Virus record (IMG/VR): IMGVR_UViG_2802428989_000001
Location: 1-64,000 of that record
Source: a virus
Direction: 5' to 3' (one strand)
Length of the DNA: 64,000 bases
Shown here: positions 14,054 through 62,883 of the stretch, in pieces
Layout of the letters: each line of letters opens with the position of its first letter
How positions within the stretch are numbered: the stretch's first letter is position 1
Notes under the pieces: generated by a model
What the model saw: the letters and a program-made list of their open reading frames with translations, nothing else
The model's database searches: none
Told to the model about the DNA's origin: nothing
Program-made: the position numbers and the translations under genes

Positions 14054-14791
14054 ATGATGGGAGCGATACTGCGTGACCCGTTGATGGGTCTCCATGCGGA
14101 TGTGCTGAACGATCTCGAATCAGTCAGGATCGCCAACGAGAATCGTCTGCGCACACTCACCGACACCGGCGAAGATGGCCACGGTCTGACGCTGGACAAC
14201 GCCGAAGTGGCCCGCCTGGCGGCGTTGGTGGACGCGCTGAAAGATGCTGAGAAACAGGCGACATCGAACCTACAGAGGTCGATGCGCATACACCCACTGG
14301 GCAACTGGGCCAAGCAGATGACCGGCGTGGGTGAGAAGCAACTGGCGCGACTGCTGGCGGCTATCGGTGATCCGTACTGGAACGACCTGCACGATCGTCC
14401 ACGGCTGGTCTCGGAGCTGTGGTCGTACGCTGGCTACGGAGTGATCGACGGAGCGGCACCGCGGCGGCAGCGAGGTGTCAAGAGCAACTGGTCCGATGAC
14501 GCACGCATGCGCGCCCGACTCATCGCAGAGAAGTGCGTGATGCAGAAGCCGACTGCGCACTATCGCCAGGTCTACGACCGAGCGCGTGAGAAGTACGCGG
14601 ATGCAACGCATGCCGTGACATGCAATCGCTGTGGTCCGAAGGGTAACCCAGCGGTCGCGGGGTCACCCCTGTCGGCGGGGCATCAACACGCGCGTGCGTT
14701 GCGCGTGGTGTCCAAGGAGCTGTTGCGCGATCTGTGGATCGAGTCGCGAAGGATTCATCAAGAGCGTGCGGAGGTTCTGATTGCGGCCTAG
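14054..14791 (+). CDS. Hypothetical protein with an HhH-like segment ('GVGEKQLARLLAAIGDPYWN').
   Basis: Leader motif CATCACAACAAC and an RBS precede ATG 14054. Confidence 0.55.
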   Translation: MMGAILRDPLMGLHADVLNDLESVRIANENRLRTLTDTGEDGHGLTLDNAEVARLAALVDALKDAEKQATSNLQRSMRIHPLGNWAKQMTGVGEKQLARLLAAIGDPYWNDLHDRPRLVSELWSYAGYGVIDGAAPRRQRGVKSNWSDDARMRARLIAEKCVMQKPTAHYRQVYDRAREKYADATHAVTCNRCGPKGNPAVAGSPLSAGHQHARALRVVSKELLRDLWIESRRIHQERAEVLIAA

Positions 14792-14846
14792 AGATCAACT
14801 ACCAGGCAACTAATCATCAATCACAACAACGAAATTGGAGAATGCG

Positions 14847-14975
14847 ATGAAGCGCTGGATATACAAATTCCTGGGCGTCCAAGTACCGGGGTACGACGAG
14901 ACGCCCGCCTACACGGCGACGGTCAAGCGTCTCGGATTCGACCCGGAGACCCTGGCCTGGGTGGTGTCGGCATGA
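14847..14975 (+). CDS. Small protein (42 aa), not in the ORF track.
   Basis: RBS 'ATTGGAGAATGCGATG'. The stop overlaps the next start. Confidence 0.35.
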   Translation: MKRWIYKFLGVQVPGYDETPAYTATVKRLGFDPETLAWVVSA

Positions 14976-15223
14976 GTGTTCTGCCGAGCACCGAAGAAGA
15001 ACTTGAGTGGGAGAGCGGCATTGGTGCGTCTCTGGACAAGCTAATCAGAGAGCACCGAGACCAGACGCGAAAGATGGGCGGAACCCCGCCGCTGAAACTG
15101 CTGGCCGGATTGCTGCACCTCACGTACAAGGCGTATGGAACCGACGAGTTTCTGAAGATCGAAGATCTGATCAACCTGTTTATCGTTGCCATTGATCGGC
15201 TTGCGCAACAGGAGATGTCGTGA
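14972..15223 (+). CDS. Hypothetical protein, paralog family member 1 (C-terminal 'VAIDRLAQQ').
   Basis: First of three tandem homologous genes. Confidence 0.55.
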   Translation: MSVLPSTEEELEWESGIGASLDKLIREHRDQTRKMGGTPPLKLLAGLLHLTYKAYGTDEFLKIEDLINLFIVAIDRLAQQEMS

Positions 15224-28291: not shown

Positions 28292-29778
28292 CCACTGCAA
28301 TCGCGCTGCCGTCGCTCCAGCTGTCGAAGGACGAACAAGCCGTACTGATGGATCTGACTACTCAGCTCCAGAAGCACCAGGGCGAAAACCTGATCAAAGA
28401 GCAGTACTACGAGGCTAAGCGCCGAATGGAAGATCTCAAGATCGCCATTCCTCCAACACTTTCCAATCTGATGTGCTGCGTAGGCTGGCCCGCCGTCGCT
28501 GTTGACAGTCTAGTTGAGCGGCTGAACTTTGAGGGCTGGTCATACGAGGGTGACGGCGAGGATCGCGACCCGCTGGGGCTCGATGAGATCTTCCTGGAGA
28601 ACGATCTCGATGTCGAGTCGGATGTTAACCACACAGACGGTCTGATGTACGGAACCTCTTTTGTGGCAGTATCTTCCGGGCTAGACGATGAGCCGGAAGT
28701 GGTCGTGACGGTTGAGTCGCCGCGGAACATGACCGCCATCTACGACCCTCGTACGCGGCGCGCTACCTCGGCGTTCCTCCAGATCGTTGATCGCGAGCTG
28801 CGGTTGGTAGGCGGGCGGCTGATTCTGCCCAACGAAATCATTTCTCTGGAATGCGTTCCCATGGAACTCGGCGCGGCGGGTGTGGGAAACATGCGAGTGG
28901 TCGACCGTAACAAGCACAACCTAGAGCGCGTGCTGGTCGCCCAGATGATCAACCGGCCACGGTCGGGTGCGCGCGGCCGCAATGGACACTCTGAAATCAC
29001 CGAAACACTTATCTCGCATACGCAGTCGGGCATGCGGACGCTAGCCAATATGGAAGTAGCGCGCGAGTACCTGGCATCGCCTCAGCGCGCGGTGCTCGGT
29101 GCGAAGGAATCATTCTTCGTCGGGGAGGACGGCAAGCCGGTCCCGGCGTGGAAATCCTATATCGGCCGCATGATCGCACTGGAGCGTGACGAGTATGGCG
29201 AGATCCCTGACATCAAGGAATTCAAGGGCGCCAGCCTGGAATCGTTCTTCGGTCAGATGCGCACACTGAGCCAGCTCGTATCCTCTGAAATTGCTGTCCC
29301 TGCAAACTATTTGGGATTTGAGACAGACAACCCGCCATCTGCCGACGCGATCCGGTCACTAGAGGGTCGCCACGTCAAACGCGCGGAGCAGCGCCAGAAG
29401 ACTTTTGGCCGCGGCTGGTCGGAGACCGCGCGGCTGTGCGTGATGGTGCGTGAAGGCAAGAAGTTCAACGAACTACCCGACGAGATTCGCAAGGTACGCC
29501 CCCAGTGGCGCGACGCCGCAACGCCGACCTTCGCGGCAACATCCGACGCGGTGACCAAGCTCATCGACAAGGGCGTTTACACACCGACATCGCGCGTCAC
29601 CCGCGACAAGCTGGGAATTAGTCGGGCTGATCAGCGACAGATGGAGATTGACGATAAGAAGACGACGGTCACGAACCTCGTCGCGTCGGTCCGTCAAGGT
29701 GTCGAGAATGCACGCCAGGACAGCCAGGTAGCGTCCCTGGCTGACCGTAGAGCGGCATCTGTTGGCCAGCCTGGTTGA
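28288..29778 (+). CDS. Portal protein.
   Basis: 496 aa, directly after the terminase large subunit with an overlapping start. Confidence 0.85.
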   Translation: MTTAIALPSLQLSKDEQAVLMDLTTQLQKHQGENLIKEQYYEAKRRMEDLKIAIPPTLSNLMCCVGWPAVAVDSLVERLNFEGWSYEGDGEDRDPLGLDEIFLENDLDVESDVNHTDGLMYGTSFVAVSSGLDDEPEVVVTVESPRNMTAIYDPRTRRATSAFLQIVDRELRLVGGRLILPNEIISLECVPMELGAAGVGNMRVVDRNKHNLERVLVAQMINRPRSGARGRNGHSEITETLISHTQSGMRTLANMEVAREYLASPQRAVLGAKESFFVGEDGKPVPAWKSYIGRMIALERDEYGEIPDIKEFKGASLESFFGQMRTLSQLVSSEIAVPANYLGFETDNPPSADAIRSLEGRHVKRAEQRQKTFGRGWSETARLCVMVREGKKFNELPDEIRKVRPQWRDAATPTFAATSDAVTKLIDKGVYTPTSRVTRDKLGISRADQRQMEIDDKKTTVTNLVASVRQGVENARQDSQVASLADRRAASVGQPG

Positions 29779-32700
29779 GCAGGCTCAAGCGCTCCAGAGC
29801 GTCCTGGGCGACCTTTCTACGCTATCCACCAAAGACCTTGTGAGCCTGTACAAGAAGCTCGAAGGCGACGGCGCTACCGGTGCCGACTTGCTGGACGCGT
29901 TCAAGGCCGTGTTCCCCGAGGTTGTACAGCCTTACGTCGAGGCCGCATCCGAAGTGGCGAATCAGTGGTACGGGGAGCTGGCACCCGATGAGCCGTACAC
30001 ACCGAAAGCGGTCGCCGCGATCGACGCGGTGCCACTAGACCGCATGATGAACTCTCTGGAGTGGGCGTTTCGCGCCGCTGGCACCGCTCACCCGCTGACA
30101 AGACTGACCGGTTCGGCGCAGCGCATGGTGTTCGACGGTGCTCGCGCGACGATTCTGCACAACGCTGACGCCGAGAATGTCAAGTACTCGCGCCTGGCGT
30201 CGCCGGGTGCGTGCGAGTTCTGTCGAGTGATGGCCACGCGTGGAGCGGTCTACCGCAGCGCTCACGCGGCGCAGGCGGGCCATGACAACTGCCATTGCGT
30301 GCCGGCTGTTGCCCGCGGAAAGCTCAAATTCCAGCGTCCGGGGTACTACCAGGACTGGGATGCCGAGTACATCGAGACGGTCAAACAGCTCGAAGCTGAG
30401 CAGATCAAGCCGACGCTCAACGCGGTCCTGTCGAAAATGCGGGCCAACGAACTGGCCGCGTCAGACAGCGGGCCAACACTGGTAGCGATGTCTACCAAGA
30501 AGTCACCGGCATCGGCGGACCTCGCAAAGTGGCTTGATGCTGAGAAACAGCACCAGGCGGACGTGGCCGCTTGGCTGGACGCCGAGAAGGTAGTCACGAA
30601 GAAGAAGGCCAAGGCCGCGGCGCAGGCGAAGTACGTCGCCAAGAAGAAGGCCACCGCCGAGTGGCTGGCGGCTGAGCAGCAGTACCAGACAGATGTAACG
30701 ACGTGGCTCGCGGCTGAGAAGGACTTCACCAAGAAAAAGGCCAAGGCCGCAGCGCAGGCGAAGTATGTCGCGAACAAGAAGGCGACTGTCGCCTGGCTTA
30801 AGGCCGAGCAGATCTACATCGAGCAGCAGGCCCCACTTGCGACCGCTGCGGCAGCGGCCAAGGCATCCGCGAAGATCACCGCGATGGCGAACGCGGCCGC
30901 GAACGTCGATCTCAAGAAAGCGGCCAAGGCACTCGCGGCGGCCAAGCATGCGGCCAAAAAGAAGGGCGACACTGCCAAGTACAACGTACTGGCCAAGATG
31001 ACGCCCACGGAATACGTGCAATCCAAGGGTGGCAACGCATCCAAGGCCGCGACGACGGCCACCGCCAAGGTCACCACACCGGAGACCGCGCCGACCGCCG
31101 GAGTCGGCACTGTATCCACCGCGACCAAGCCCAAGGTTGTCGTCGGCGAGCTGACAGATTCGCCGAACGTGCTCGCCAGCACCGGTCAGGTACTCGGCAC
31201 GCACGGCGCCACGGTGTACACCGACTCACAGTCTCAGAAGTGGTTGGTCAAGGGGCCCAAGAACCCGAATGATCAATTCCTGGTCACGCTGGATGCGGCA
31301 TCTGCTGAGCTGCAAGCGAAGTCGGGCTTGACGACACCGGCGATGTACATCATGACGGTAGGTGGTAAGCGTCAGTCCGTTCAGTACATGTTCCCCGGAA
31401 GTAAGAGTGCCTTTCCTTCTGGGGTTGACCTGTCCACAATCAGTGAACCTGATCTGTTGACGATCCAGAAGCATCACGCGCTCGACTGGCTGATGGGTAA
31501 TCACGACAGCCATGCTGGGCAGTTCATCCGTACTGGTAGCGGTGAGATCGTCGGAATCGACAAGGGTCAAGCCTTCAAGTATTTCACCGGCGACAAGCTG
31601 GACTGGAACTATCACCCCAACGTCAAGCACGGCACGCCAGAACCCATTTACAACACGCTGTTTCGGCAGTACGCCGAAGGCAAGCCCGGTCAGTTGCTCA
31701 ATCCCTCGGGCGGCGAGCTAGCGGACTACATCCAAGGTTTACAGGCGATTCCAGACAAAGAGATTCGCAACCTATTTCGGCCCTACGCCGAGGGTGCGGT
31801 CAAACAGGGGAAGCTGTTGGTCGAGGCCAACGGTAGCACTCCAACGAACAATGTTGACGCGTTCCTAGACGCAGTTGTTGCCAGAAAGAACAGTCTCGGA
31901 ACCGATCTGAGCGCCTACTACGTCAAGGCTGTCGAAAAGCGTCTGACGAAGACCAAAGTCAAAGGTGAGGTCATCACCGTGCCGCCAGGGATGAGCATCT
32001 CCCAGGGTGACATCCTGCTGCCGACACCATCAGCGACGACGACGGTTCTGTTGCCGTCTGCTGATGTGCTCAAGAAGGCAGGCAAAGCACTCGCATCCGC
32101 GAAGTATCTAGCGAAAAAGAAGGGCGATACAGCCAAGTTCGCCGAGCTGTCGAAGTTGTCACCCGCTCAATACTTGCAGACCAAGAGCGGTGATGGCCTC
32201 GTGCCCACGGCCGCTACCGAGTCACCCACGGGTTCTGCGACCACTATTCAAATTGCCAAGTGGCAAAAGGAATTTCTCCAGAAGTTCGGCTCCAGCGGGT
32301 TCTTCCAGCCTGTCAAGTCGATGGCGGTCGAGAAGGGTATCAAGCTTTCGGAGGCAATCCCAGAGTTCGATAAAGAGTTCGGAATCAACGCCTTGACCGT
32401 GGATCAGATGGTCAACCTGATGGGCTATTACGGCGCGGCCGTCCAGAGCAAGTGGATCAACAAGTATGGCGATCTGCTCGGCGATGACGTAGCCACAAAG
32501 GTGTGGGACAAGCTCAAGGCGCAGGGCAAGTCCACACTCATAGAACCGCCGAAACCTGTTGCCATCAAGCCGGGTACGAAGTACACACCCGAGCATGAGC
32601 AGCCCGTAGCCGAAATCGCCAAGCTGGGTAAGGCTGTCATCGCCAACCCGAAAGCACCGGTTGGATCTGCGGACAACCCGCACATATTCGACGCGAGCGG

Positions 32701-33301
32701 TAAGACGGCGGAGTGGCAGCAGTTCGGATCGCTGATGTCGCCGCAAGACCAGGCATCCTGGAAGGCCAATCAGTACAGCGCCATCAAGTCCTACACCGGC
32801 AGCGGCTATAGCACCATGAACGCGCACGCGCGCGAAGACAAGGTGCCCTCAGCCAAGACGAAGGCGCTCGATTCAGCGTTTTATGAGCACAAGCCTTTCG
32901 AGGAGCACATCGTGCTCAGCCGCGGTACGCACGCTGTTGAGTTCAACGACGAGAACAGTTTGGGAATGAAGTTCAACTTTGCCGACAGCACCGATGTTGA
33001 CGCGCTCAAGGTGCTGGAGGGTGAGACGTACGTGTCCAAGTCCTTCCTGTCCACGTCGATCACCACGGTGCCGGCATTCAGCAACCCGGTCCGCGTGCTG
33101 TACAAAATGAGACCCGGCCAGCGAGGCATTTTCGTCTCAGGCACGCCAGACGGGGCGAACCAACTGACCTCCGTGGGAACACATGAGCGCGAGGTTATCC
33201 TTCCCCGTAACCAGAAGATGAAGGTGCTCGAAGTACGGAAGTCGACCGGGACGCATTCCAAGGTTGACGTGATCGTGGAGGTGGTGGATCAACCTGTCTA
33301 A
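29762..33301 (+). CDS. MuF-family head morphogenesis protein fused to Lys/Ala-rich repeats, a protein-kinase-like (APH/HipA-like) core and a C-terminal R-S-E ADP-ribosyltransferase domain (1179 aa). Start uncertain: TTG at 29762, or GTG near 29840.
   Basis: Follows the portal gene. 'ACEFCRVMATRG...HDNCHC' MuF-like. Repeats 'KKKAKAAAQAKYVAKKKAT'. 'GNHDSHAGQF...VGIDKGQAF' (HGDxxxxN plus IDxG spacing of 18). ART motifs 'YTGSGYSTMNAHAR', 'FLSTSIT' and 'THEREVILP'. Confidence 0.8.
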   Translation: MASLVEQAQALQSVLGDLSTLSTKDLVSLYKKLEGDGATGADLLDAFKAVFPEVVQPYVEAASEVANQWYGELAPDEPYTPKAVAAIDAVPLDRMMNSLEWAFRAAGTAHPLTRLTGSAQRMVFDGARATILHNADAENVKYSRLASPGACEFCRVMATRGAVYRSAHAAQAGHDNCHCVPAVARGKLKFQRPGYYQDWDAEYIETVKQLEAEQIKPTLNAVLSKMRANELAASDSGPTLVAMSTKKSPASADLAKWLDAEKQHQADVAAWLDAEKVVTKKKAKAAAQAKYVAKKKATAEWLAAEQQYQTDVTTWLAAEKDFTKKKAKAAAQAKYVANKKATVAWLKAEQIYIEQQAPLATAAAAAKASAKITAMANAAANVDLKKAAKALAAAKHAAKKKGDTAKYNVLAKMTPTEYVQSKGGNASKAATTATAKVTTPETAPTAGVGTVSTATKPKVVVGELTDSPNVLASTGQVLGTHGATVYTDSQSQKWLVKGPKNPNDQFLVTLDAASAELQAKSGLTTPAMYIMTVGGKRQSVQYMFPGSKSAFPSGVDLSTISEPDLLTIQKHHALDWLMGNHDSHAGQFIRTGSGEIVGIDKGQAFKYFTGDKLDWNYHPNVKHGTPEPIYNTLFRQYAEGKPGQLLNPSGGELADYIQGLQAIPDKEIRNLFRPYAEGAVKQGKLLVEANGSTPTNNVDAFLDAVVARKNSLGTDLSAYYVKAVEKRLTKTKVKGEVITVPPGMSISQGDILLPTPSATTTVLLPSADVLKKAGKALASAKYLAKKKGDTAKFAELSKLSPAQYLQTKSGDGLVPTAATESPTGSATTIQIAKWQKEFLQKFGSSGFFQPVKSMAVEKGIKLSEAIPEFDKEFGINALTVDQMVNLMGYYGAAVQSKWINKYGDLLGDDVATKVWDKLKAQGKSTLIEPPKPVAIKPGTKYTPEHEQPVAEIAKLGKAVIANPKAPVGSADNPHIFDASGKTAEWQQFGSLMSPQDQASWKANQYSAIKSYTGSGYSTMNAHAREDKVPSAKTKALDSAFYEHKPFEEHIVLSRGTHAVEFNDENSLGMKFNFADSTDVDALKVLEGETYVSKSFLSTSITTVPAFSNPVRVLYKMRPGQRGIFVSGTPDGANQLTSVGTHEREVILPRNQKMKVLEVRKSTGTHSKVDVIVEVVDQPV

Positions 33302-33320: not shown

Positions 33321-33689
33321 TTGCCCAACGGCGTATACGACATCATCAGCGCCGAGCTAGGCGCGTTCTATGACCGGCCGGATTATCCCGGTGCGCGCGC
33401 TGGCGCTGGGCGCTACGTGGATCTTTTCCAAGACCCAGAACTGGAACACCCAATCGGGCGACTCTGGACCAATGACAAAGACGCCTGCGGCCTGCTGCAT
33501 GTGGCAGACGGCGACGAAGTGCTGTACGCCTACGTTGCGCTATCAATTCGGCGCGAATTTGATGGTGGCGAATCTGCTACGGATACCTTTGACTTCATCC
33601 GCGGCGAGTGGCAAGAAGACGGCACACTCACGACAGTCGATCTTGCAGACATCGAAGACTCTTCGATCGAACTTAATGCCAATATATAG
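33321..33689 (+). CDS. Hypothetical protein directly downstream of the ART toxin domain; candidate immunity or accessory protein.
   Basis: TTG start 20 nt after the MuF-ART stop. Acidic. Followed by a strong terminator. Confidence 0.4.
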   Translation: MPNGVYDIISAELGAFYDRPDYPGARAGAGRYVDLFQDPELEHPIGRLWTNDKDACGLLHVADGDEVLYAYVALSIRREFDGGESATDTFDFIRGEWQEDGTLTTVDLADIEDSSIELNANI

Positions 33690-54942: not shown

Positions 54943-55634
54943 CCCTGGTACGTCCACCTAAGCCGTTCACGCGGATGGTTCACGCGCGGCCCGGTGTGCT
55001 GTCTCAGCCCATCGGAGCTGTCGGTAAGGGTGCGCGTATCGGCGTCGTTGCCGATGTTCTGGTGACGGGCAAGATGCACGTCACCGATACCTTCACGAAC
55101 CTGGACAAGTTCACGATGGTGTACGGCGGCCTGCCGTTCTTCGGTGGGGTCCCCTATATCGACGGCGGGAAGCTGGCAGGCCGTGGCCTGGTGCGTCACA
55201 AGGTGCAGGCGATGAGCGACAACGGCCGCGCCAATGCCGTCATCGGCTCGCTGGCGACCGGTAAGACCCGGCTGGTGATCTGCGGTGACGCGCTGTTCAA
55301 CACCTACTACGGCATCGAGGTTGAGACCGGCATCATCAACAACAAGCTGCACATCATCAAGGGCCGCGGCAACGCGGCCACAGTGACCAAGCACGCGACA
55401 GTCAACGTGGCATGGGCCAACAGCGATTCGGTGTCGGTGTGGTACGACGAGCCCAACCACACCATTCGCGCCTACCGGAACAACACGCAGGTGACGAGTC
55501 TGGCGGTGCGAGCCAATGAGATCAACCACGGACCGGGGTTTAGACACCATGGCGTCGCGGTCGGGGTGGATCTGTTCCTGGGTGTGATCAACGTCGGCGC
55601 GCTGTTCACGTCATACGAATATCTCGACGTTTAG
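54939..55634 (+). CDS. Hypothetical protein.
   Basis: Overlapping start. 231 aa. Confidence 0.5.
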   Translation: MTLVRPPKPFTRMVHARPGVLSQPIGAVGKGARIGVVADVLVTGKMHVTDTFTNLDKFTMVYGGLPFFGGVPYIDGGKLAGRGLVRHKVQAMSDNGRANAVIGSLATGKTRLVICGDALFNTYYGIEVETGIINNKLHIIKGRGNAATVTKHATVNVAWANSDSVSVWYDEPNHTIRAYRNNTQVTSLAVRANEINHGPGFRHHGVAVGVDLFLGVINVGALFTSYEYLDV

Positions 55635-55717
55635 CGCCGCCAAAACTGTAGGACATGTACTGTCAACTACCGGGCTACATTCATCTCCGAGACCCATCAT
55701 CCGAGCCTGGAGTAGAG

Positions 55718-56896
55718 ATGCCCGATCTGTCATTCACCATGGACCGCGACGCGTTCACAGAGGCCGTCACGTGGGCCGCACGCATCATCCCCGGTAAGCC
55801 GCAGACGCCCATCCTGGCGGGAATGCTGGCGACGGGAGGAGCATCAGGACTGACGCTGAGCAGTTTCGACCTGGACGTGAGCGCTGAGATTGGCCTTCCC
55901 GACGCGCAGCAGGTGACGCCTGGTAGTTCGCTGGTCAGCGGCCGACTGCTCGCGACAATCGCCAAGGTGCTGCCACGCAAGCCGATCACCTGGACCGATA
56001 ACGGCTCAACCGTGGCCATCCAGTGCGGCAAGGTTGACTTCAGTCTCCCGACGATGCTCGCTGACCAGTACCCCGTACTGCCGGCGCTACCCGAGGACAC
56101 CGGCACCGTCAGCGCCGAGGAGTTCAGTCACGCGGTCACGCAGGTGATCGGCGCGGCCAGCAGCGACGAGGCCAAGCCTGGTCAGATGTGCGTGAGCCTG
56201 GAGATCACCAGTGAGTCCACACTGACACTCACGACAACCAACGGCCACCGGATCGCCATGCGTGAGATCGGCTGGACGCCGCTGTCCGACAACCCGGCCA
56301 TTGGGCAACGCCTTCTGATCCCGACTCGCGCGCTGGCCGAGATTGGCCGACTCGGTGACGATCAGGTCTATCTCGCGATCAGTGGGAATGAAAGCGACGC
56401 GCAGCTTCTCGGCATCCATGGCGGCACTCGACGCATGACTTCGCGACTCGTCGATGACAAGTTCCCCAACTGCCGAGCGGCGCTGCCGAAGCAATACCTG
56501 ACCACCGCGACCGTTGTCGTTCCCGAGATCGCCGAGTCTGTCACCCGCGCACTGGCCGTCACCGGCTCGTCGGCTGACAACCATCCAAGGATGAAGTTGA
56601 CTTTTGGTGACAACACGTTGAATGTCTACGCGAGCACGTCGATCGGCACGGTCAATGAGGACATCGACGTGCAGCTCACCGGAGAGCCTGAGACCGTGTG
56701 GATCAACCCCGTGTACCTCATGGACAGCCTGAATGCTCTCGACAGCGACAAGGCGACCATCGGCCTGCAAGGTGGTCTGCGCGGGTTGATGTTCGCGCCT
56801 GACGTTGTTGAGGCCGATGAGCTGCTAGCCAATCCGCTTGCCGGTGAAACGATTCAGATGATCCAGCCGATTCGTCACACGGAACCGGCCGCGTAG
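55718..56896 (+). CDS. dnaN: DNA polymerase III beta subunit (sliding clamp).
   Basis: RBS 'GGAGTAGAG' before ATG 55718. Three-domain DnaN-like sequence ('TPILAGMLATGGASGLTLSSFDLD...', 'TTNGHRIAMREI', C-terminal 'LMFAP'). Confidence 0.85.
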   Translation: MPDLSFTMDRDAFTEAVTWAARIIPGKPQTPILAGMLATGGASGLTLSSFDLDVSAEIGLPDAQQVTPGSSLVSGRLLATIAKVLPRKPITWTDNGSTVAIQCGKVDFSLPTMLADQYPVLPALPEDTGTVSAEEFSHAVTQVIGAASSDEAKPGQMCVSLEITSESTLTLTTTNGHRIAMREIGWTPLSDNPAIGQRLLIPTRALAEIGRLGDDQVYLAISGNESDAQLLGIHGGTRRMTSRLVDDKFPNCRAALPKQYLTTATVVVPEIAESVTRALAVTGSSADNHPRMKLTFGDNTLNVYASTSIGTVNEDIDVQLTGEPETVWINPVYLMDSLNALDSDKATIGLQGGLRGLMFAPDVVEADELLANPLAGETIQMIQPIRHTEPAA

Positions 56897-56973
56897 ACCC
56901 CCCTGACGGTCGTAGCACCCGACCCTGTCCGGTGAACCAGGTGAGAGCGCTCCCGTCAGGGGCCTCAAAAGGA

Positions 56974-57012
56974 AACGCCCCCAACCGCATTCAGCTCGCG
57001 GTTGGGGGCGTT
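56974..57012. terminator. Bidirectional rho-independent terminator between convergent genes.
   Basis: 15-bp stem AACGCCCCCAACCGC / GCGGTTGGGGGCGTT with T-rich DNA downstream and A-rich DNA upstream. Confidence 0.8.
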
Positions 57013-57020
57013 TTGTATTT

Positions 57021-57188
57021 CTATTGCAATGTCTCGTAGGCGGTAGCTACTTGACCTTTCAGATCTTCGATCGTGTTCAGCGCCTCAAGGTGTGAGTCGA
57101 TGAGTTGCCGCTCGCGTTCGGCGCTCGGGTGGTAGTCCATCTTGTTCACGACTCGTCGCCAACCGGCGAGCGTTTCGCGTTTGATCAT
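57021..57188 (-). CDS. Small hypothetical protein (55 aa).
   Basis: ATG shares its A with the upstream stop (TGATG-style overlap). Last gene of the leftward operon. Confidence 0.35.
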   Translation of the reverse strand: MIKRETLAGWRRVVNKMDYHPSAERERQLIDSHLEALNTIEDLKGQVATAYETLQ

Positions 57189-57628
57189 CAGTGCCCCTCT
57201 CTGGAATCCAATTCGGTTGTAATGTCGGAGATTGGGCGACTTCCCGCCTCGATTCGATCGTGGACGCAGACAGCCCCTACGCACGGGGGACCGTTGAATA
57301 CCCTTTCGATCAGCCCTCCCAGTCGTGAGTCACCGGACGCCATGTTGCCTCCGAACATTGTCCACGTGCGCATCTGGAATGCCGAGAGCGGCACAAAATG
57401 CGGCAGCGCTCCGGGTAGATTTGGCCCGACAAGCACCACGGCGTTATCGCTCGTAGACTCCACAACCCGTGATCCCTCCGGTGGTGGAATCAGCTCACCG
57501 TTGCGGTCGCTCGCGATACCGACCAGAACCAGACGAGAGTGCCGCGCGCTGATGCCATTCAGGGTGCAGTCGGGAAAGTCCGCGGGTCGCAAGACCGTTA
57601 GTTCTAATCCCATCATTGTGTCAGTCAT
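57188..57628 (-). CDS. Hypothetical protein (146 aa) co-transcribed downstream of the ADP-ribosylglycohydrolase gene.
   Basis: ATG shares its A with the glycohydrolase stop. No recognisable motif. Confidence 0.45.
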   Translation of the reverse strand: MTDTMMGLELTVLRPADFPDCTLNGISARHSRLVLVGIASDRNGELIPPPEGSRVVESTSDNAVVLVGPNLPGALPHFVPLSAFQMRTWTMFGGNMASGDSRLGGLIERVFNGPPCVGAVCVHDRIEAGSRPISDITTELDSREGH

Positions 57629-58638
57629 CAGAACTCGTATCCTTCCGCTTCTGAAATCTCTTTCTGGTAGCGCGTTTCCAGCCGATCGAACCACTCGGCA
57701 GGCCATGGGTCGTCATACATCGCGCCGAGGATTGATCCCGCGATCGCCGCGATCGAGTCGCTGTCACCGCTCGTGACCGTCGCGCGACGTAGTGCCGCTA
57801 TCGGGTCATTGGGAAACAGATCGATGCAGAACAGCGCGCACGCCAGCGCATCATGAGCGCGCCAGCCGGGGCCAGCGTGCTCACACGGATCGAGATCCCA
57901 CGGATCAACACCAGAATCACGCAACTGGCGAAGTGCGATATCCGCGGTCAGTAGACGGTCCTGGACGAAGAGCAGACCGCGCGTCATGAACCGACGCACG
58001 CCGACCTCAGCGACGACAGGGTGACCGTCGATCCAACGGGCAACATCCGTAAGTAGAGACGAATCATGATGTAGCCCAGTGCTTGCCAGATAGACCGCCT
58101 CTTCGAGCAGCCGCCCTGGGTAGATGCTTCGCGCATTGCGGATGATCGCTGCGGTCAAGAGCGATGCGGCGATGCCCGTCGCGCGCCCGTGGGTGGATGC
58201 TGCTTGCCACGCGGCGACCCCTTGCCAGCTGCGATCTTTGGTTACGAAAGCTGCTGGACTGACGCGCATTACCGTGCCGCATCCATCCGAGTTCAAAATA
58301 GTGGCCTTGGGCCAGGGGAAGTCGTTCTTCAACGCCCCGATAGCGCGCATGCACGTGTTGCCCGGTGCGCGGTTGTTGTCTGGGTCATCGAACCACTTGA
58401 TCCACTGATCGATGATCTTGACGCCAACCTCATCATCGGTCAATTCTTTTGTGTCGTGGAGACCTCGCGCGAGCGCGAGCGTCATCTGAGTGTCGTCGCT
58501 GATGATCAGCTTCTCAGGCAGCTCTGGGCCCATTAGCCCGTTTTCGGTGAGCTGAGCGTACGACCTGAACTCATTGCGGTAGCCCCACGCATCGCCATAG
58601 GCGACACCACGGAGCACGTTGGACCATTTACTAGGCAT
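57628..58638 (-). CDS. ADP-ribosylglycohydrolase (DraG/ARH family).
   Basis: N-terminal 'GVAYGDAWG' and C-terminal 'SGDSDSIAAIAGSILGAMYD' metal-binding signatures of the ARH fold. Confidence 0.85.
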   Translation of the reverse strand: MPSKWSNVLRGVAYGDAWGYRNEFRSYAQLTENGLMGPELPEKLIISDDTQMTLALARGLHDTKELTDDEVGVKIIDQWIKWFDDPDNNRAPGNTCMRAIGALKNDFPWPKATILNSDGCGTVMRVSPAAFVTKDRSWQGVAAWQAASTHGRATGIAASLLTAAIIRNARSIYPGRLLEEAVYLASTGLHHDSSLLTDVARWIDGHPVVAEVGVRRFMTRGLLFVQDRLLTADIALRQLRDSGVDPWDLDPCEHAGPGWRAHDALACALFCIDLFPNDPIAALRRATVTSGDSDSIAAIAGSILGAMYDDPWPAEWFDRLETRYQKEISEAEGYEF

Positions 58639-58831
58639 TTGGTTTCCTCATATGGAAGGGGACGCACGTTTCGCACTCGTACTTTCCGGACTCATCAGCG
58701 ACGTACACACCGAGAGGTGTGGTGTGCCGCTTCGCGCTGGGCCGCTCCTTGATGGCGAAACGCATGTACATACCCGAGTGCTCGTCGCACGTGACCATTC
58801 CGCCGTTATCGATCCAGACCCTCTTGGCCAT
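58631..58831 (-). CDS. Small zinc-ribbon protein.
   Basis: 'CDEH...CETC'. First gene of the leftward operon. The operator-bearing promoter region lies upstream. Confidence 0.45.
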   Translation of the reverse strand: MAKRVWIDNGGMVTCDEHSGMYMRFAIKERPSAKRHTTPLGVYVADESGKYECETCVPFHMRKPNA

Positions 58832-58855
58832 GAGCAGCCCTTTCGTCCGTTGTTT

Positions 58856-58923
58856 GGTAGACGGCTCTACCGTAGCACATTGGTAGAGCTGTCTACTACT
58901 CTATTGGTAGAATGAACTACCAA
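58856..58923. promoter_or_regulatory. Divergent promoter region with three GGTAGA-type palindromic operators.
   Basis: GGTAGACGGCTCTACC at 58856-71. GGTAGAGCTGTCTACT at 58882-97. TTGGTAG-n6-CTACCAA at 58904-23, abutting ATG 58925. Confidence 0.55.
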
Positions 58924-58924
58924 G

Positions 58925-59731
58925 ATGACACACATGACCGACGACAAGATCGTTGACAAGATCGCAAAGCTGTTGCGACAGGCCGAGGATGTAACAGGGA
59001 CGCCCGAGGAGGATGCGTTTCAAGAGCGCGCCTTCGCACTGCTGGCCAAGCATGGCATCGACCTGGCGACTGTGCGCGCACATCAGCGCGGACTCGACAT
59101 CAGCGACATGCCGAACGCCATCGACACGCTGATGCTTGTTCATAGTCCTTACGCGAGTGAGCAGAAGCACATGCTGTCCATCCTCGCGGAGGCGCTGCAT
59201 TGCAAGACCGTTGGACTCAATGACATCCCGTTCGTGCATGTCTTCGGTATGTCTCACCATGTTGCGCGTCTACAAATGCTCTGGGAGATATTGCAACCAC
59301 AGGCGACGCGCTTGGTTGCCAAAGTGCAGATGTCGAAACGGAAACCGGTTCGCAAGCTCACCCCATCCGAGTGGGCGGCGATGAATCGAGCGCAGCGAAG
59401 AGACCACCTGGTAGAGATGACGCGCGAAAGACGTGCACCGGTATCACTGCACGTTTATCGCCAGTCGTGGTTGATCGGGTTTGCCGCGTCGATCGCTCAG
59501 CGCATTAAGCTCCAGGAAGGAGAGGCCGCCAACAAGGCTGGCGTGGTCGCGCTATACAAGTCCGACCGTGAGCGCGCTGACGACGCGATGCGCGGCGCGT
59601 ACCCGGACGCGGTCAACACTATGGTGGACCAGTTCAGTGACGATGGATTCAACCAGGGTGCGCGCGCCGGACAGACCGCGACCATGGATCGGCCGGTTGA
59701 GTCTGTAGACCCTCTAGGTTTGCCGCGCTAG
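58925..59731 (+). CDS. Hypothetical protein with an alpha-helical N-terminus ('KIVDKIAKLLRQAE...EEDAFQERAFALLAKHGI').
   Basis: ATG immediately after the operator. 268 aa. Confidence 0.55.
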   Translation: MTHMTDDKIVDKIAKLLRQAEDVTGTPEEDAFQERAFALLAKHGIDLATVRAHQRGLDISDMPNAIDTLMLVHSPYASEQKHMLSILAEALHCKTVGLNDIPFVHVFGMSHHVARLQMLWEILQPQATRLVAKVQMSKRKPVRKLTPSEWAAMNRAQRRDHLVEMTRERRAPVSLHVYRQSWLIGFAASIAQRIKLQEGEAANKAGVVALYKSDRERADDAMRGAYPDAVNTMVDQFSDDGFNQGARAGQTATMDRPVESVDPLGLPR

Positions 59732-59767
59732 TAGCTTGCACTACCGGCCACGTCACTAGACTAAAAG

Positions 59768-60157
59768 GTGACAACTGGAGGACACTTCATGACCATGGCA
59801 ACAGCTCCCACCAACGCAACCGGATGGCTACGCGAGAACGGTTTCAAACTGTCTCGCGCGGCATCGTCGCGTTTCGTGGACACGTTCAACGATCTCGTCG
59901 AGCGCTACGCAGACCCAGCGGAGTATCCGATGCGCGACGCGGCGATCATGGCTGCGGCGCGGTATCTCTCGGAAGAGCTGACCTTGGATGATGCTGGTCT
60001 GGCGCTGGAGCGAGCGCGGAGCCGCGCCGACACGGGCATGGCCGTTGCGCGCGTCGTGGCCCTGCTGTCGATGGAAGACGGTCTGAGTGAGCATGGTGCA
60101 CAGCGCGCGGCCCGCGTCGATCGTATGACCGTGCGACGTTGGAGGGGGAAGCGGTGA
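59768..60157 (+). CDS. Putative HTH DNA-binding protein.
   Basis: C-terminal 'GLSEHGAQRAARVDRMTVRRW' HTH-like. Confidence 0.45.
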   Translation: MTTGGHFMTMATAPTNATGWLRENGFKLSRAASSRFVDTFNDLVERYADPAEYPMRDAAIMAAARYLSEELTLDDAGLALERARSRADTGMAVARVVALLSMEDGLSEHGAQRAARVDRMTVRRWRGKR

Positions 60158-60441
60158 CCGAGTACCTGGGTCTCACTGACATCTGCGCATGCGGTCACGA
60201 TCTGGAAAACCACGACCTCGGCGACCCGCATCACCGCGCCGGCGCGTGCGCTGGCCATGAGCTGGATGGCCCTTGCGACTGCACGCACTACCGGGAGAAG
60301 TGCCGGTGTCCCGAGTGCGACGATCTGGAGGAGATTGAGGTCGAAGAGATGACCACGCGAACCCTGCTGACGACTCTGGGTGTGCTGGTTGGGTTCGGTG
60401 TTCTGCTCGGTATGTCGTTCGGGAGACTGATCAGGCGCTAG
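60154..60441 (+). CDS. Cys/His-rich protein with a C-terminal TM helix. Start could be GTG 60154 or ATG 60139.
   Basis: 'CACGHDLENHD...HHRAGACAGHE...CDCTHY...CRCPECD', then 'LLTTLGVLVGFGVLLGM'. Confidence 0.4.
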   Translation: MTEYLGLTDICACGHDLENHDLGDPHHRAGACAGHELDGPCDCTHYREKCRCPECDDLEEIEVEEMTTRTLLTTLGVLVGFGVLLGMSFGRLIRR

Positions 60442-60473
60442 ATGCGCCACAGTGGCGAAATACGTTGATACGG

Positions 60474-60510
60474 AAGCACCCCCGAGATTCGCTCTCGGGG
60501 GTGCTTTGTC
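60474..60510 (+). terminator. Rho-independent terminator.
   Basis: 13-bp stem AAGCACCCCCGAG / CTCGGGGGTGCTT followed by TTGTCGTTG. Confidence 0.75.
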
Positions 60511-60521
60511 GTTGTGAAAGC

Positions 60522-60710
60522 TTAGAAAGTGGCGTCGATGGAGCGAGCGAAGCTGACTACATTGTCCCGCAGTTGCACTCCCAGGTCTTGCGCCGCGCGA
60601 CACCGCTTAACGAATTCATCAGGTTTGAGAACGCCTGCCATGACATCACATTTCTGGTTGTACAACGATGCCTCGATGTCTATCGCCTGTCTCTTGGTGA
60701 CTATGCTCAT
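60522..60710 (-). CDS. Small ORF (62 aa), low confidence; the locus may instead be a small RNA.
   Basis: ATG directly abutted by the operator GGTAGAGCAGTCTACC (60711-26). Only ~59% GC3. Flanked by two terminators. Confidence 0.3.
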   Translation of the reverse strand: MSIVTKRQAIDIEASLYNQKCDVMAGVLKPDEFVKRCRAAQDLGVQLRDNVVSFARSIDATF

Positions 60711-60752
60711 GGTAGAGCAGTCTACCAGCTGGACTCATGCTTATCAATAAGA

Positions 60753-60805
60753 ACGGCACCCCCGAACCTAATCTCCGGGGGTGCCGTTTCTCCGTTTGTT
60801 TTTCC
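60753..60805 (+). terminator. Rho-independent terminator-like hairpin with a T-tract.
   Basis: 12-bp stem ACGGCACCCCCG / CGGGGGTGCCGT followed by TTCTCCGTTTGTTTTT. Confidence 0.6.
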
Positions 60806-60815
60806 AGCGACGAAA

Positions 60816-62255
60816 TCAGCTCTTCTTGAGCTTCAAGGTGCCGACGTAATCATTGTCGTAATCCCGAATCTCGAAGTCCGTCATGAGGTTCTGGATCTGA
60901 TCGTCAATGGTCGGCGTGGCGATACCCTCTTCGGCCTCAAACTGCGCCTTGAGCTGGTTGTGCAGCGACACCGCCGCGCCAACCAGATCGGTGGTATCCA
61001 GCTTGTAGTTGGTTCCGCCATTGAGCCGACCGATCGCGAACGTCTTGGCTCGCTCCAGGGCCTCGCGTACGAACGCCGGATAGAAACCGACCACCACGCC
61101 ATCACCAAGCTGGATGGTCATCGCCTCATAGACCTTGTCGTAGTCCACGTCATCTGCAAGACGCTCAGTTGCGACGACGGCCTTGATCAGACGTTCAACA
61201 CCGTTGCGGTCCAGTGCCGCGACCTCAACCACCGCATCGATGCGCCCAGGGCGGAGCATGCCCTTGTGGATGCGCTCAAAGTGGTTGGTAGTCATCAGAA
61301 GTGCGACCTCGGACCCCTTGGATGTGACACCATCGAAGGTCTCCAGCAGCTTGGACACCTGGTCTACGTCGCTGGTCGATGTCTGATTGTCCACGTCCTC
61401 AATGAATACCACCGCGGGCTGGTACAGCTTCGCTGTACGGAGAACATCATTGATGTCATCACCCGGTCGTGCAGCGATGAAAGTCCAACCATTCTGGACA
61501 GCCTCCAGCGCGGTGAGCTGACCAGCCGAGGTCTTCCCGGTACCGTACGGACCCTCCAGCAGCAGCGCGCGCTTGATGCGCACGCCCTCGCCTTTGAGTG
61601 CCTTGCGGTGCCGAATCACCGACCACAGAGTGCCTTCCAGTGTGCTCATCACTTCGTCGGAGAAGACGATCTCACTCGGTACGATGGTCGCGAGGTTCAG
61701 GAACTCCGGTTCCTCGGTGCCGACGATCGCCTTACCGCGATAGATCGAGTTGGTTTTCAGCTCCTCGCCGATCGCATCAAGGAACTCACGCGCGATTTTG
61801 GCGTTCTTCTTCGCAGTGATGACGGTGACATGAGTGACGATCCCGTTGTCGCGATCGCGTTTGCCGCCGACGTTGACCAGCGTCCGATTGTCAACGCTGG
61901 GCAGGTAGACGTTGCCCCATGGAACTTCCAGGGTCTCGGTTGCCGAAATCTGCACCGTGCGGGTTTCCGGGGGTTCGGGCGGGGAGAAGAAACCGCCACC
62001 ACTCGGAGCGCCGATGGTGATACCGAACATGCGCTTCATCACCCGAGAGGTGGCGACCGCGCCGTCAAACGGACGGAACTGGTAGGTGCGGCTAGTCTGC
62101 TGCACCGACTCGGCCTCATCCTGCATGCGCTCCAGGATCTCCTTGGCGCGACCGTATGTAATGCCTTCCGGCAGAACGATCTGCGGGTTCTTGTGAAAGG
62201 TAACCTCATCACCGGTGATGATGTCGGTATCGTTCATTGGTTTTCTCACTTTCAT
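60816..62255 (-). CDS. Classic-clade AAA+ ATPase with a ~250-aa N-terminal domain of unknown function.
   Basis: Walker A 'GPYGTGKTS'. Walker B 'VVFIEDVD'. Second region of homology 'RPGRID'. Start chosen at MKVRK (RBS GGAAGGTG). The ORF track extends it to 62393. Confidence 0.8.
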   Translation of the reverse strand: MKVRKPMNDTDIITGDEVTFHKNPQIVLPEGITYGRAKEILERMQDEAESVQQTSRTYQFRPFDGAVATSRVMKRMFGITIGAPSGGGFFSPPEPPETRTVQISATETLEVPWGNVYLPSVDNRTLVNVGGKRDRDNGIVTHVTVITAKKNAKIAREFLDAIGEELKTNSIYRGKAIVGTEEPEFLNLATIVPSEIVFSDEVMSTLEGTLWSVIRHRKALKGEGVRIKRALLLEGPYGTGKTSAGQLTALEAVQNGWTFIAARPGDDINDVLRTAKLYQPAVVFIEDVDNQTSTSDVDQVSKLLETFDGVTSKGSEVALLMTTNHFERIHKGMLRPGRIDAVVEVAALDRNGVERLIKAVVATERLADDVDYDKVYEAMTIQLGDGVVVGFYPAFVREALERAKTFAIGRLNGGTNYKLDTTDLVGAAVSLHNQLKAQFEAEEGIATPTIDDQIQNLMTDFEIRDYDNDYVGTLKLKKS

Positions 62256-62774: not shown

Positions 62775-62883
62775 TGGTAGACAGGTCTACCAATATGGAC
62801 TCACTGAAAGTGTTGTACAAGGCAACGCTACGTCAAATGGTGGACATAGACCTCGTGCAGTTTAGGTAGTAGAGTCATCTACC
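62775..62883. promoter_or_regulatory. Divergent promoter region with a perfect 18-bp palindrome and a second GGTAG...CTACC site.
   Basis: TGGTAGAC-AG-GTCTACCA at 62775-92. GGTAG-n9-CTACC at 62865-83. Confidence 0.55.

Follow-up and report, generated by a model that had tools for sequence, protein, structure and literature searches.

A lysogeny-region ADP-ribosylglycohydrolase of a Mycobacterium abscessus prophage as a candidate eraser of marks made by capsid-delivered ADP-ribosyltransferases

Why should a prophage that carries an ADP-ribosyltransferase (ART) on a capsid protein also encode an enzyme of the family that removes ADP-ribose? The question is raised by a stretch of viral DNA of 64,000 nucleotides (positions 1 to 64,000 of IMG/VR record IMGVR_UViG_2802428989_000001), which is called the window here. 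An ADP-ribosylglycohydrolase (ARH) of 336 amino acids, gp84, is encoded at 57628..58638 on the minus strand, and the ART forms part of gp53. Over the region 55000-61000 the window agrees at 100% identity with BK061308.1, the record of Mycobacterium phage prophiFSAT01-1, and a window coordinate is the coordinate of that record minus 217. This prophage comes from M. abscessus strain 280 and has been grouped with McProf and three other prophages in cluster MabR, which has five phages. In GenBank gene 84 of BK061308.1 carries the label 'ADP-ribosyl glycohydrolase' and gene 53 the label 'minor capsid and ADP-ribosyltransferase domain fusion protein'. The McProf orthologue of gp84, gp86, was annotated by Cushman et al. 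2021 (PMC8191103), and the MabR cluster paper lists the hydrolase among the genes common to all MabR genomes (PMC9434293). As a single gene, gp84 is an ordinary family member that is already annotated and published. Immunity by ARH enzymes against ARTs of the R-S-E type is also established (PMC3482391; PMC8120803). The original prediction, which took the locus for an undescribed system, is thus not borne out on this point. What is added here is the co-occurrence signal between hydrolase and ART, and the naming of gp54, a small protein encoded next to the ART gene, as the likelier cognate immunity protein. Our answer to the question, to which we give a probability of roughly 45%, is that gp84 could be a catalytic eraser, unlinked to the ART gene and expressed in lysogens, of the ADP-ribose marks that capsid-delivered ARTs leave.

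The identity of the enzyme comes first. gp84 matches Pfam PF03747 (ADP_ribosyl_GH) with an E-value of 4.6e-49 and 168 bits (cut-off 26.2) over residues 9-308 of 336, and phrog_6572 'ADP-ribosylglycohydrolase' with an E-value of 2.1e-24. Both signature motifs on which the gene had been recognized, GDAWG (residues 15-19) and SGDSDSIAAIAGSILG (residues 290-305), were located. In alignments of 12 and of 55 sequences D16, E23, D48, D49, T149-H150 and G291-D292-S293-D294 do not vary in the gp84 clade, and G15 and T50 are invariant or almost so. As sequence motifs, all the ligands of the binuclear metal site are present in gp84, namely G15-D16, E23, S47-D48-D49-T50, T149-H150 and D292-S293-D294-S295. 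The AF2 (AlphaFold2) model, built from 55 sequences, is all-helical and has a predicted local distance difference test score (pLDDT) of 97.2 and a predicted template modelling score (pTM) of 0.95. Foldseek matched it with a probability of 1.00 to ARH3, ARH1, MJ1187 and 8za7, at template modelling (TM) scores of 0.65-0.73. Judged from motifs and model, gp84 is apparently an intact, catalytically competent, metal-dependent ADP-ribosyl hydrolase.

The enzyme had been called DraG-type, a label that fits loosely. In a sequence search of PDB, DraG (2woe/2woc) is the best match with an E-value of 5.5e-9, followed by Tri1 (6dre, 2e-6) and ARH3 (1.9e-5); the identity of gp84 to every solved member of the ARH family is about 20% (about 20-23% in the DraG alignment). 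By structure, however, ARH1 and ARH3 (TM 0.70-0.73, ARH3 on top by a small margin) do at least as well as DraG (0.59-0.60). The catalytic set of DraG is E-D-D, that is E28, D60 and D97 (PMC8120803). In the phmmer alignment E28 and D60 correspond to E23 and D48/D49 of gp84, but D97 pairs with Ala91, which lies inside a clade-invariant NNRAPG loop, with a near-invariant D87 four residues upstream. This loop, a DPC motif and G-x-G-W are invariant features of the clade's own, and the alignments place gp84 in a separate actinobacterial and actinophage clade of ARH enzymes. With the DraT-DraG system, which reversibly ADP-ribosylates an arginine of nitrogenase reductase, gp84 has the metal and catalytic motifs Glu and Asp-Asp in common; the prophage context is without DraT, GlnB-type or nitrogenase genes.

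The proposed writer of the marks is gp53 (29762..33301, plus strand), a polyvalent minor capsid protein of the MuF/VG15 kind with an ART at its C-terminus. The N-terminal part matches PF25310 (VG15/MuF) with an E-value of 1.1e-37 and the ART domain, residues 1001-1170 (nucleotides 32762-33271), matches PF03496 with 1.2e-15. The presence of an R-S-E ART on the MuF protein had been read correctly from the DNA, and the catalytic set is complete: R1054, S1097-T-S (STS 1097-1099) and E1142-x-E1144. ARTs with the ExE motif usually modify arginine, and ADP-ribosylated arginine is the linkage removed by ARH enzymes of the DraG/Tri1 type (PMC8120803). Like the MuF polymorphic toxins, gp53 is a capsid MuF protein with a C-terminal toxin domain presumed to be injected with the DNA, and in those systems too a short ORF (open reading frame) of less than 150 amino acids is the putative immunity gene (PMC5576092). 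Like gp53, Alt of phage T4 is a packaged R-S-E ART (PMC8120803). Neither the MuF-toxin model nor the T4 Alt model includes an eraser encoded by the phage, and the prophage adds an ARH. For T4 itself no ARH is known.

The link between the two enzymes is their joint occurrence across phages. The hydrolase found 27 phage records by tblastn; the ART domain of gp53 found 75, and a second search with the divergent ART of phage Forza found 38. Hydrolase and PF03496 ART occur together in 18 of the 27 hydrolase-positive records, which is 4 of 6 independent lineages. Both genes are carried by the five MabR phages, by Cafasso, Morgana, ObLaDi and Aleemily, by Sixama, Forza, Mareelih, BlueNGold and Boopy, and by GMA2. 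The Fisher test at the level of records gives p = 1e-42, and at the level of lineages p = 1e-3 is obtained even when a background ART frequency of 10% is allowed. In the co-occurring phages the ARTs sit on proteins of 873-1285 amino acids, and in MabR, Sixama/Forza and GMA2 they lie among head or structural genes. These large ART proteins are apparently associated with the virion.

The ART also has a candidate partner next to its own gene. gp54 (33321..33689, plus strand), an unannotated protein of 122 amino acids, begins 19 nt after the ART gene. All five MabR phages, Sixama (E 3e-13), Cafasso (E 3e-8) and Morgana have a homologue directly 3' of the ART. A homologue with 52% identity in Mycolicibacterium sp. 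XJ870 overlaps the end of a gene for a WXG100/SecA_DEAD polymorphic toxin of 6354 amino acids, a toxin of type VII secretion (T7SS), and the C-terminal ART of this toxin is 47% identical to that of gp53 (E 2e-54). An ART and a small downstream gene that move jointly between delivery scaffolds bear the signature of a toxin-immunity cassette, and 89% of MuF toxin genes are followed by an ORF of less than 150 amino acids (Jamet et al. 2017, PMC5576092). Among the MabR phages gp54 diverges in parallel with the ART, and FSQJ01-1 is the outlier for both (73% and 59% identity). Because the cassette arrangement recurs and gp54 diverges in step with the ART, gp54 would be the likelier cognate antidote of the gp53 ART. 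The hydrolase had been put forward as antidote or partner of the ART. The intact enzyme and the co-occurrence speak for a partnership, but as a strict antidote the adjacent gp54 is more plausible.

When is the hydrolase made? The McProf orthologues of gp84 and gp83 are gp86 (97% identical) and gp85, and both are named among the 16 McProf genes expressed in lysogens (PMC9434293). McProf gp86 was also placed among the genes 'typically expressed during lysogeny' (PMC8191103). The gp54 orthologue is not listed among lysogenically expressed genes in the description of the McProf RNA sequencing (PMC9434293, PMC8191103). Self-immunity of the lysogen, which had been suggested as one role of the hydrolase, fits the lysogenic expression reported for the McProf operon.

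These observations could be joined as follows. Transcription of gp84 would start at an operator-controlled promoter of its own, within the right-arm 'lysogeny' region. Tri1 blocks its toxin by an N-terminal extension (PMC8120803). The conserved ARH core of gp84 starts at residue 11, and Tri1 aligns from its own residue 73. As gp84 is without such an occluding extension, it would act catalytically and in trans, in a non-stoichiometric manner, and would erase ADP-ribose marks from proteins, probably from arginine. The marks would be those made by VIP2/Alt-type R-S-ExE ARTs which are packed in the capsids of tailed phages and injected with the DNA, gp53 being one of them. Two effects on the lysogen could be expected. 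Marks made by the ART that arrived with the infecting genome would be cleared and the new lysogen would recover, and the takeover of the host by sibling or rival phages armed with ARTs would be blunted. The producer cell would be shielded by gp54 instead, as the immunity protein inherited together with the ART.

A number of points weigh against this proposal. The association between hydrolase and ART is real, but it is neither obligatory nor exclusive, so that the co-occurrence which the prediction called for was found in part. Many ART-carrying actinophages have no hydrolase, among them temperate cluster A mycobacteriophages, Microbacterium phages with a MuF-ART and the Chidiebere group. Conversely, two hydrolase lineages, the Trina-like Rhodococcus phages and Phrappuccino/Settecandela, gave no ART in genomes that were scanned in part, and a custom ART hidden Markov model of five sequences had no match in the first 50 kb of Trina or at the right end of Settecandela. 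The closest mycobacterial homologues of gp84 outside MabR are embedded in mobile-element contexts, and no ART is found within 8 kb of them. In the prophage itself the ART gene ends at 33301, and the hydrolase lies about 24 kb away on the opposite strand under separate operators. The reported lysogenic expression belongs to the McProf orthologue, and prophiFSAT01-1 was not the phage measured. Hydrolase alleles within MabR (McProf 97%, the others 63-66% identity) do not co-vary with ART alleles and thus lend no positive support; the mismatch is compatible with enzymatic action in trans. We infer the substrate, ADP-ribosylated arginine on host proteins, as well as where the marks come from and what biological benefit gp84 brings.

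An extended form of the proposal is a two-tier antidote. Here gp54 would be a stoichiometric immunity protein made together with the toxin to guard the producer, while the hydrolase, controlled by a helix-turn-helix (HTH) protein, would erase marks in lysogens after injection. Lysogens would then survive their own toxin and ART-armed rivals would be excluded, and the same regulator may touch the toxin gene through a palindrome in gp53. We consider this scheme possible but doubtful. As a writer/eraser pair of a bacteriophage it would, if true, be the first to be described. If gp84 does erase the marks of capsid-delivered ARTs, ADP-ribosylation in the conflict of phage with host and of phage with phage would be reversible from the side of the phage. 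Few genes are expressed from MabR prophages in lysogens of M. abscessus and M. chelonae, and one of these would then have a definite function. This would matter for phage therapy of M. abscessus, because therapeutic phages that depend on injected ARTs could be weakened by resident prophages, and for phenotypes driven by prophages, such as the effect of McProf on drug resistance. In concept, an unlinked eraser expressed by a prophage together with a capsid ART would be a modest but worthwhile extension of the established opposition of ARH enzymes and R-S-E ARTs.

The ADP-ribose marks could also come from elsewhere. On this explanation the hydrolase would be a shield acquired by lysogenic conversion against ARTs of non-phage origin, either interbacterial T7SS/WXG100 toxins or ART modules of the host that serve as toxin-antitoxin or defence systems. 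The ART of the XJ870 toxin, with its 47% identity to that of gp53, shows that such a domain can serve as the C-terminal warhead of a WXG100 toxin. The prophage bears an ESX-type polymorphic toxin cassette near attR (record annotation; PMC9434293), and expression in McProf lysogens suits a shield. Phage erasers directed against ART defence of the host exist, the AdfN NADAR domain against DarT1 being one (PMC11825919). The specific co-occurrence with capsid ARTs in large actinophages is left unexplained by a shield of this kind, and no ARH-family enzyme is known to reverse DNA marks of the DarT type (PMC11833690). We regard this explanation as unlikely.

The unlinked erasers AdfN against DarT1 (PMC11825919) and PARG as a protective immunity against RhsP2 (PMC11833690) guard against the ART of another party, and in this they resemble the arrangement in which gp84 would erase marks of injected ARTs. 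Unlike gp84, these two have the NADAR and macrodomain/PARG folds, act on nucleic-acid substrates and have been demonstrated experimentally. A closer relative in sequence is the group of bacterial ARG-centred operons, for which Iyer, Burroughs, Anantharaman and Aravind 2022 predicted a role against viral ARTs (PMC9503650); direct evidence for the role of the domains discussed there is lacking according to the same paper. Streptomyces homologues of gp84 (about 40% identical) adjoin a Nudix-NrtR regulator and therefore belong to this predicted system. The ARG-centred systems have the same ARH clade and the same proposed role, the erasing of marks set by an outside ART. They are chromosomal and ligand-sensing, with a Nudix- or WYL-HTH regulator and often a linked phosphatase. 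The phage operon, in contrast, has plain HTH/operator control, no Nudix or WYL neighbour and no phosphatase partner, and an ART is present on the same genome.

The substrate of gp84 need not be a protein at all. The enzyme could act on small ADP-ribose derivatives such as O-acetyl-ADP-ribose, ADP-ribose-1''-phosphate from RNA repair or ADP-ribose-based immune signals, and so serve housekeeping of nicotinamide adenine dinucleotide (NAD) and ADP-ribose or an anti-signalling function. ARH3-type enzymes hydrolyse O-acetyl-ADP-ribose (PMC9503650), and the marginal lead of ARH3 in the Foldseek search would agree with such a substrate, as would the gene neighbours in Rhodococcus phages of the Trina type, RNA ligase, phosphoribosyl pyrophosphate (PRPP) transferase and ThyX, with a tRNA methyltransferase in Trina itself. 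The Trina protein is, however, only 36% identical to gp84, and the MabR context is without NAD-salvage or RNA-repair genes. Phage ARG domains have been argued to prefer macromolecular conjugates (Iyer et al., PMC9503650), and the co-occurrence with capsid ARTs would again go unexplained. Such a role is rather improbable.

The hydrolase could instead be, as the original prediction mainly had it, the strict cognate antidote of gp53 in the manner of Tri1, or modification and erasure could be timed within one lytic cycle, with host targets reset as the infection goes on. The idea has precedents. Zhang et al. 2012 described ARG as the only enzymatic immunity protein and as strictly tied to R-S-E ART toxins (PMC3482391), and immunity by ARG was later confirmed experimentally by Tre1/Tri1 (PMC8120803). 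In Tre1-Tri1 of the Serratia proteamaculans type VI secretion system and in the solved effector-immunity pair of Listeria (8za7), an R-S-E ART is likewise paired with an ARH-fold enzyme able to remove the mark. The co-occurrence agrees with this idea too, and in Cafasso the hydrolase lies in a leftward block of small genes. The genes of the two known pairs are adjacent, whereas in the prophage they are 24 kb apart under separate control, and the position held there by the ARH is held here by the small gp54, which travels with the ART between MuF protein and T7SS toxin. The occluding extension used by Tri1 is missing from gp84, the hydrolase alleles do not follow the ART alleles, and the operon is expressed in lysogens and is not placed in the lytic module. 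On balance we think it improbable that gp84 serves in either of these two ways.

The least probable explanation is that gp84 regulates the physiology of the host. It would counteract an ART which the mycobacterium itself encodes, as in the DraT/DraG switch, and so change host phenotypes such as the whiB7 and drug-resistance effects associated with McProf. Lysogeny of McProf changes both the expression of whiB7 and the resistance to aminoglycosides (PMC8191103), McProf gp85 and gp86 are expressed in lysogeny and stand on the authors' list of candidate genes (PMC9434293), and the Streptomyces homologues are chromosomal and coupled to NrtR, but no host ART partner was identified in this analysis and the co-occurrence with capsid ARTs is left unexplained.

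If gp84 is an eraser of marks from injected ARTs, what is the unit that the phages keep? The predicted leftward operon of four genes, with the hydrolase in second place, is confirmed by the tight order gp85-gp84-gp83-gp82, in which the genes are linked by one 8-nt overlap and two ATGA overlaps. Shine-Dalgarno-like sequences precede gp85 and the hydrolase. The first gene, gp85 (58631..58831, minus strand), codes for 66 amino acids. It was described as a zinc-ribbon protein, and a possible C-x2-H...C-x2-C ribbon is indeed formed by C15, H18, C53 and C56, which are the sole basis of the assignment; gp85 has no match in Pfam, PHROG or PADLOC. The gene following the hydrolase, gp83 (57188..57628, minus strand; 146 amino acids, PF26991/phrog_6045), has its start coupled to the stop codon of the ARH gene by an ATGA. 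The last gene, gp82 (57021..57188, minus strand; 55 amino acids), is an insertion in prophiFSAT01-1 relative to McProf.

The composition of the operon differs between relatives. gp85 is common only to McProf and FSIL01-1, and gp83 is found in MabR otherwise only in McProf; outside this cluster its carriers are mycobacteriophages of cluster K and unrelated jumbo phages, all of them without the hydrolase. gp85 and gp82 were considered as conserved partners of the hydrolase and were rejected, as they are not retained across the MabR relatives. The hydrolase is the only gene of the operon kept in all five MabR phages. It is always found at the same position, with the sliding-clamp gene on one side and a divergent HTH gene on the other, and the small neighbours vary. 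Since the operon partners change between phages, the functional unit is the hydrolase with its control region and not a four-gene system. No phosphatase match was found among the operon partners, and PADLOC, run on the proteins of the four operon genes and on gp86 of prophiFSAT01-1, returned zero defence-system matches.

The control region has been kept together with the hydrolase. gp85 and gp86 diverge from an intergenic region of 93 bp (58832-58924), and three operator palindromes (58854..58921) lie within it. Their pattern is TTGGTAGA-N4/5-(T)CTACC (also written TTGGTAGA-N-(T)CTACC), the three copies are 24-26 bp apart, and the chance expectation of the pattern within the window is 0.00. 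Each of the five MabR phages has a GTAGA-N4-TCTAC palindrome immediately upstream of its hydrolase operon, although the flanking genes differ. The region had been described as an operator-bearing promoter; the operators are real and conserved, but a scan of the control region with the sigma-70 consensus called no promoter. A candidate binder of the operators is gp87 (59789..60157, plus strand), an annotated HTH protein of 122 amino acids encoded divergently from the operon, which we infer from its position and annotation; gp87 has no Pfam match. At the other end of the operon a bidirectional intrinsic terminator was correctly foreseen. It occupies 56964..57013, between the convergent genes gp81 (sliding clamp, plus strand) and gp82. 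The hairpin at 56973-57013 has a 17-bp stem with a free energy of -33.2 kcal/mol and a z-score of -6.2, an A-rich run before the stem and a U-rich run after it, and the terminator is retained in McProf.

Copies of the GTAGA-N4-TCTAC palindrome are also present at 60711-60726, 62776-62791 and 62869-62882, that is upstream of gp89 and in the divergent region between gp91 and gp92, ahead of an AAA-ATPase operon whose ATPase matches nSTAND3/AAA. No copy was found near the repressor/cro region. The presence of palindromes at several right-arm operons and their absence by repressor/cro point to a second regulon of right-arm genes, independent of the immunity repressor and probably under gp87.

An operator-like palindrome, GGTAGCGATGTCTACCAA, is found inside gp53 as well, at 30481-30498, some 720 nt from the start of the MuF-ART gene. 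McProf has kept it, and the copy of the divergent FSQJ01-1 is a perfect GGTAGA-GATG-TCTACC. The palindrome uses the rarest codon for Val (GTA, 12.8%) and the rarest for Ser (TCT, 8.5%), and these rare codons suggest selection on the DNA rather than on the protein. Through it the regulation of the ART gene may be connected to the hydrolase regulon.

Some minor observations were made on the genes discussed above. McProf gp84, which is a different gene from the hydrolase, has no counterpart at 56900-57020 of the window, and conversely gp82 of prophiFSAT01-1 is absent from McProf. The family of gp83 (PF26991/phrog_6045) has 192 representatives in an exhaustive search, with invariant GG and HDR motifs; the AF2 model of gp83 has a pLDDT of 91.7 and no matching fold among PDB structures. 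The ESX polymorphic toxin of the prophage itself was considered as the ART partner and rejected, as the ORFs of the scanned locus gave no ART signal. In Settecandela the hydrolase lies 4 kb upstream of gp220, a protein of 2030 amino acids with three tandem repeats of about 220 residues. The repeats follow the pattern [WY]RG ... GLGRHW[ST] ... ExE[IV]T-LP and are R-S-ExE-like by eye; hhalign gave them a probability of 0.3% against the ART profile, and Pfam returned nothing for them. An unannotated kinase-like domain lies in the middle of gp53 (window 31109-31951, residues about 450-730). It carries the motifs GNHDSHAGQF and GIDKGQAF, it weakly matches the DNA-PKcs catalytic loop (E 0.7), and Settecandela gp220 has an N-terminus 40% identical to it. 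With this domain and the ART, gp53 would be polyvalent and hold two or more enzymatic modules. In Gordonia phage GMA2 the ART-bearing structural protein Orf10 has a C-terminal domain that resembles a 2H phosphoesterase or Acb1 (E about 1e-3), and a second ART-like match is present at record coordinates 14511-15035.

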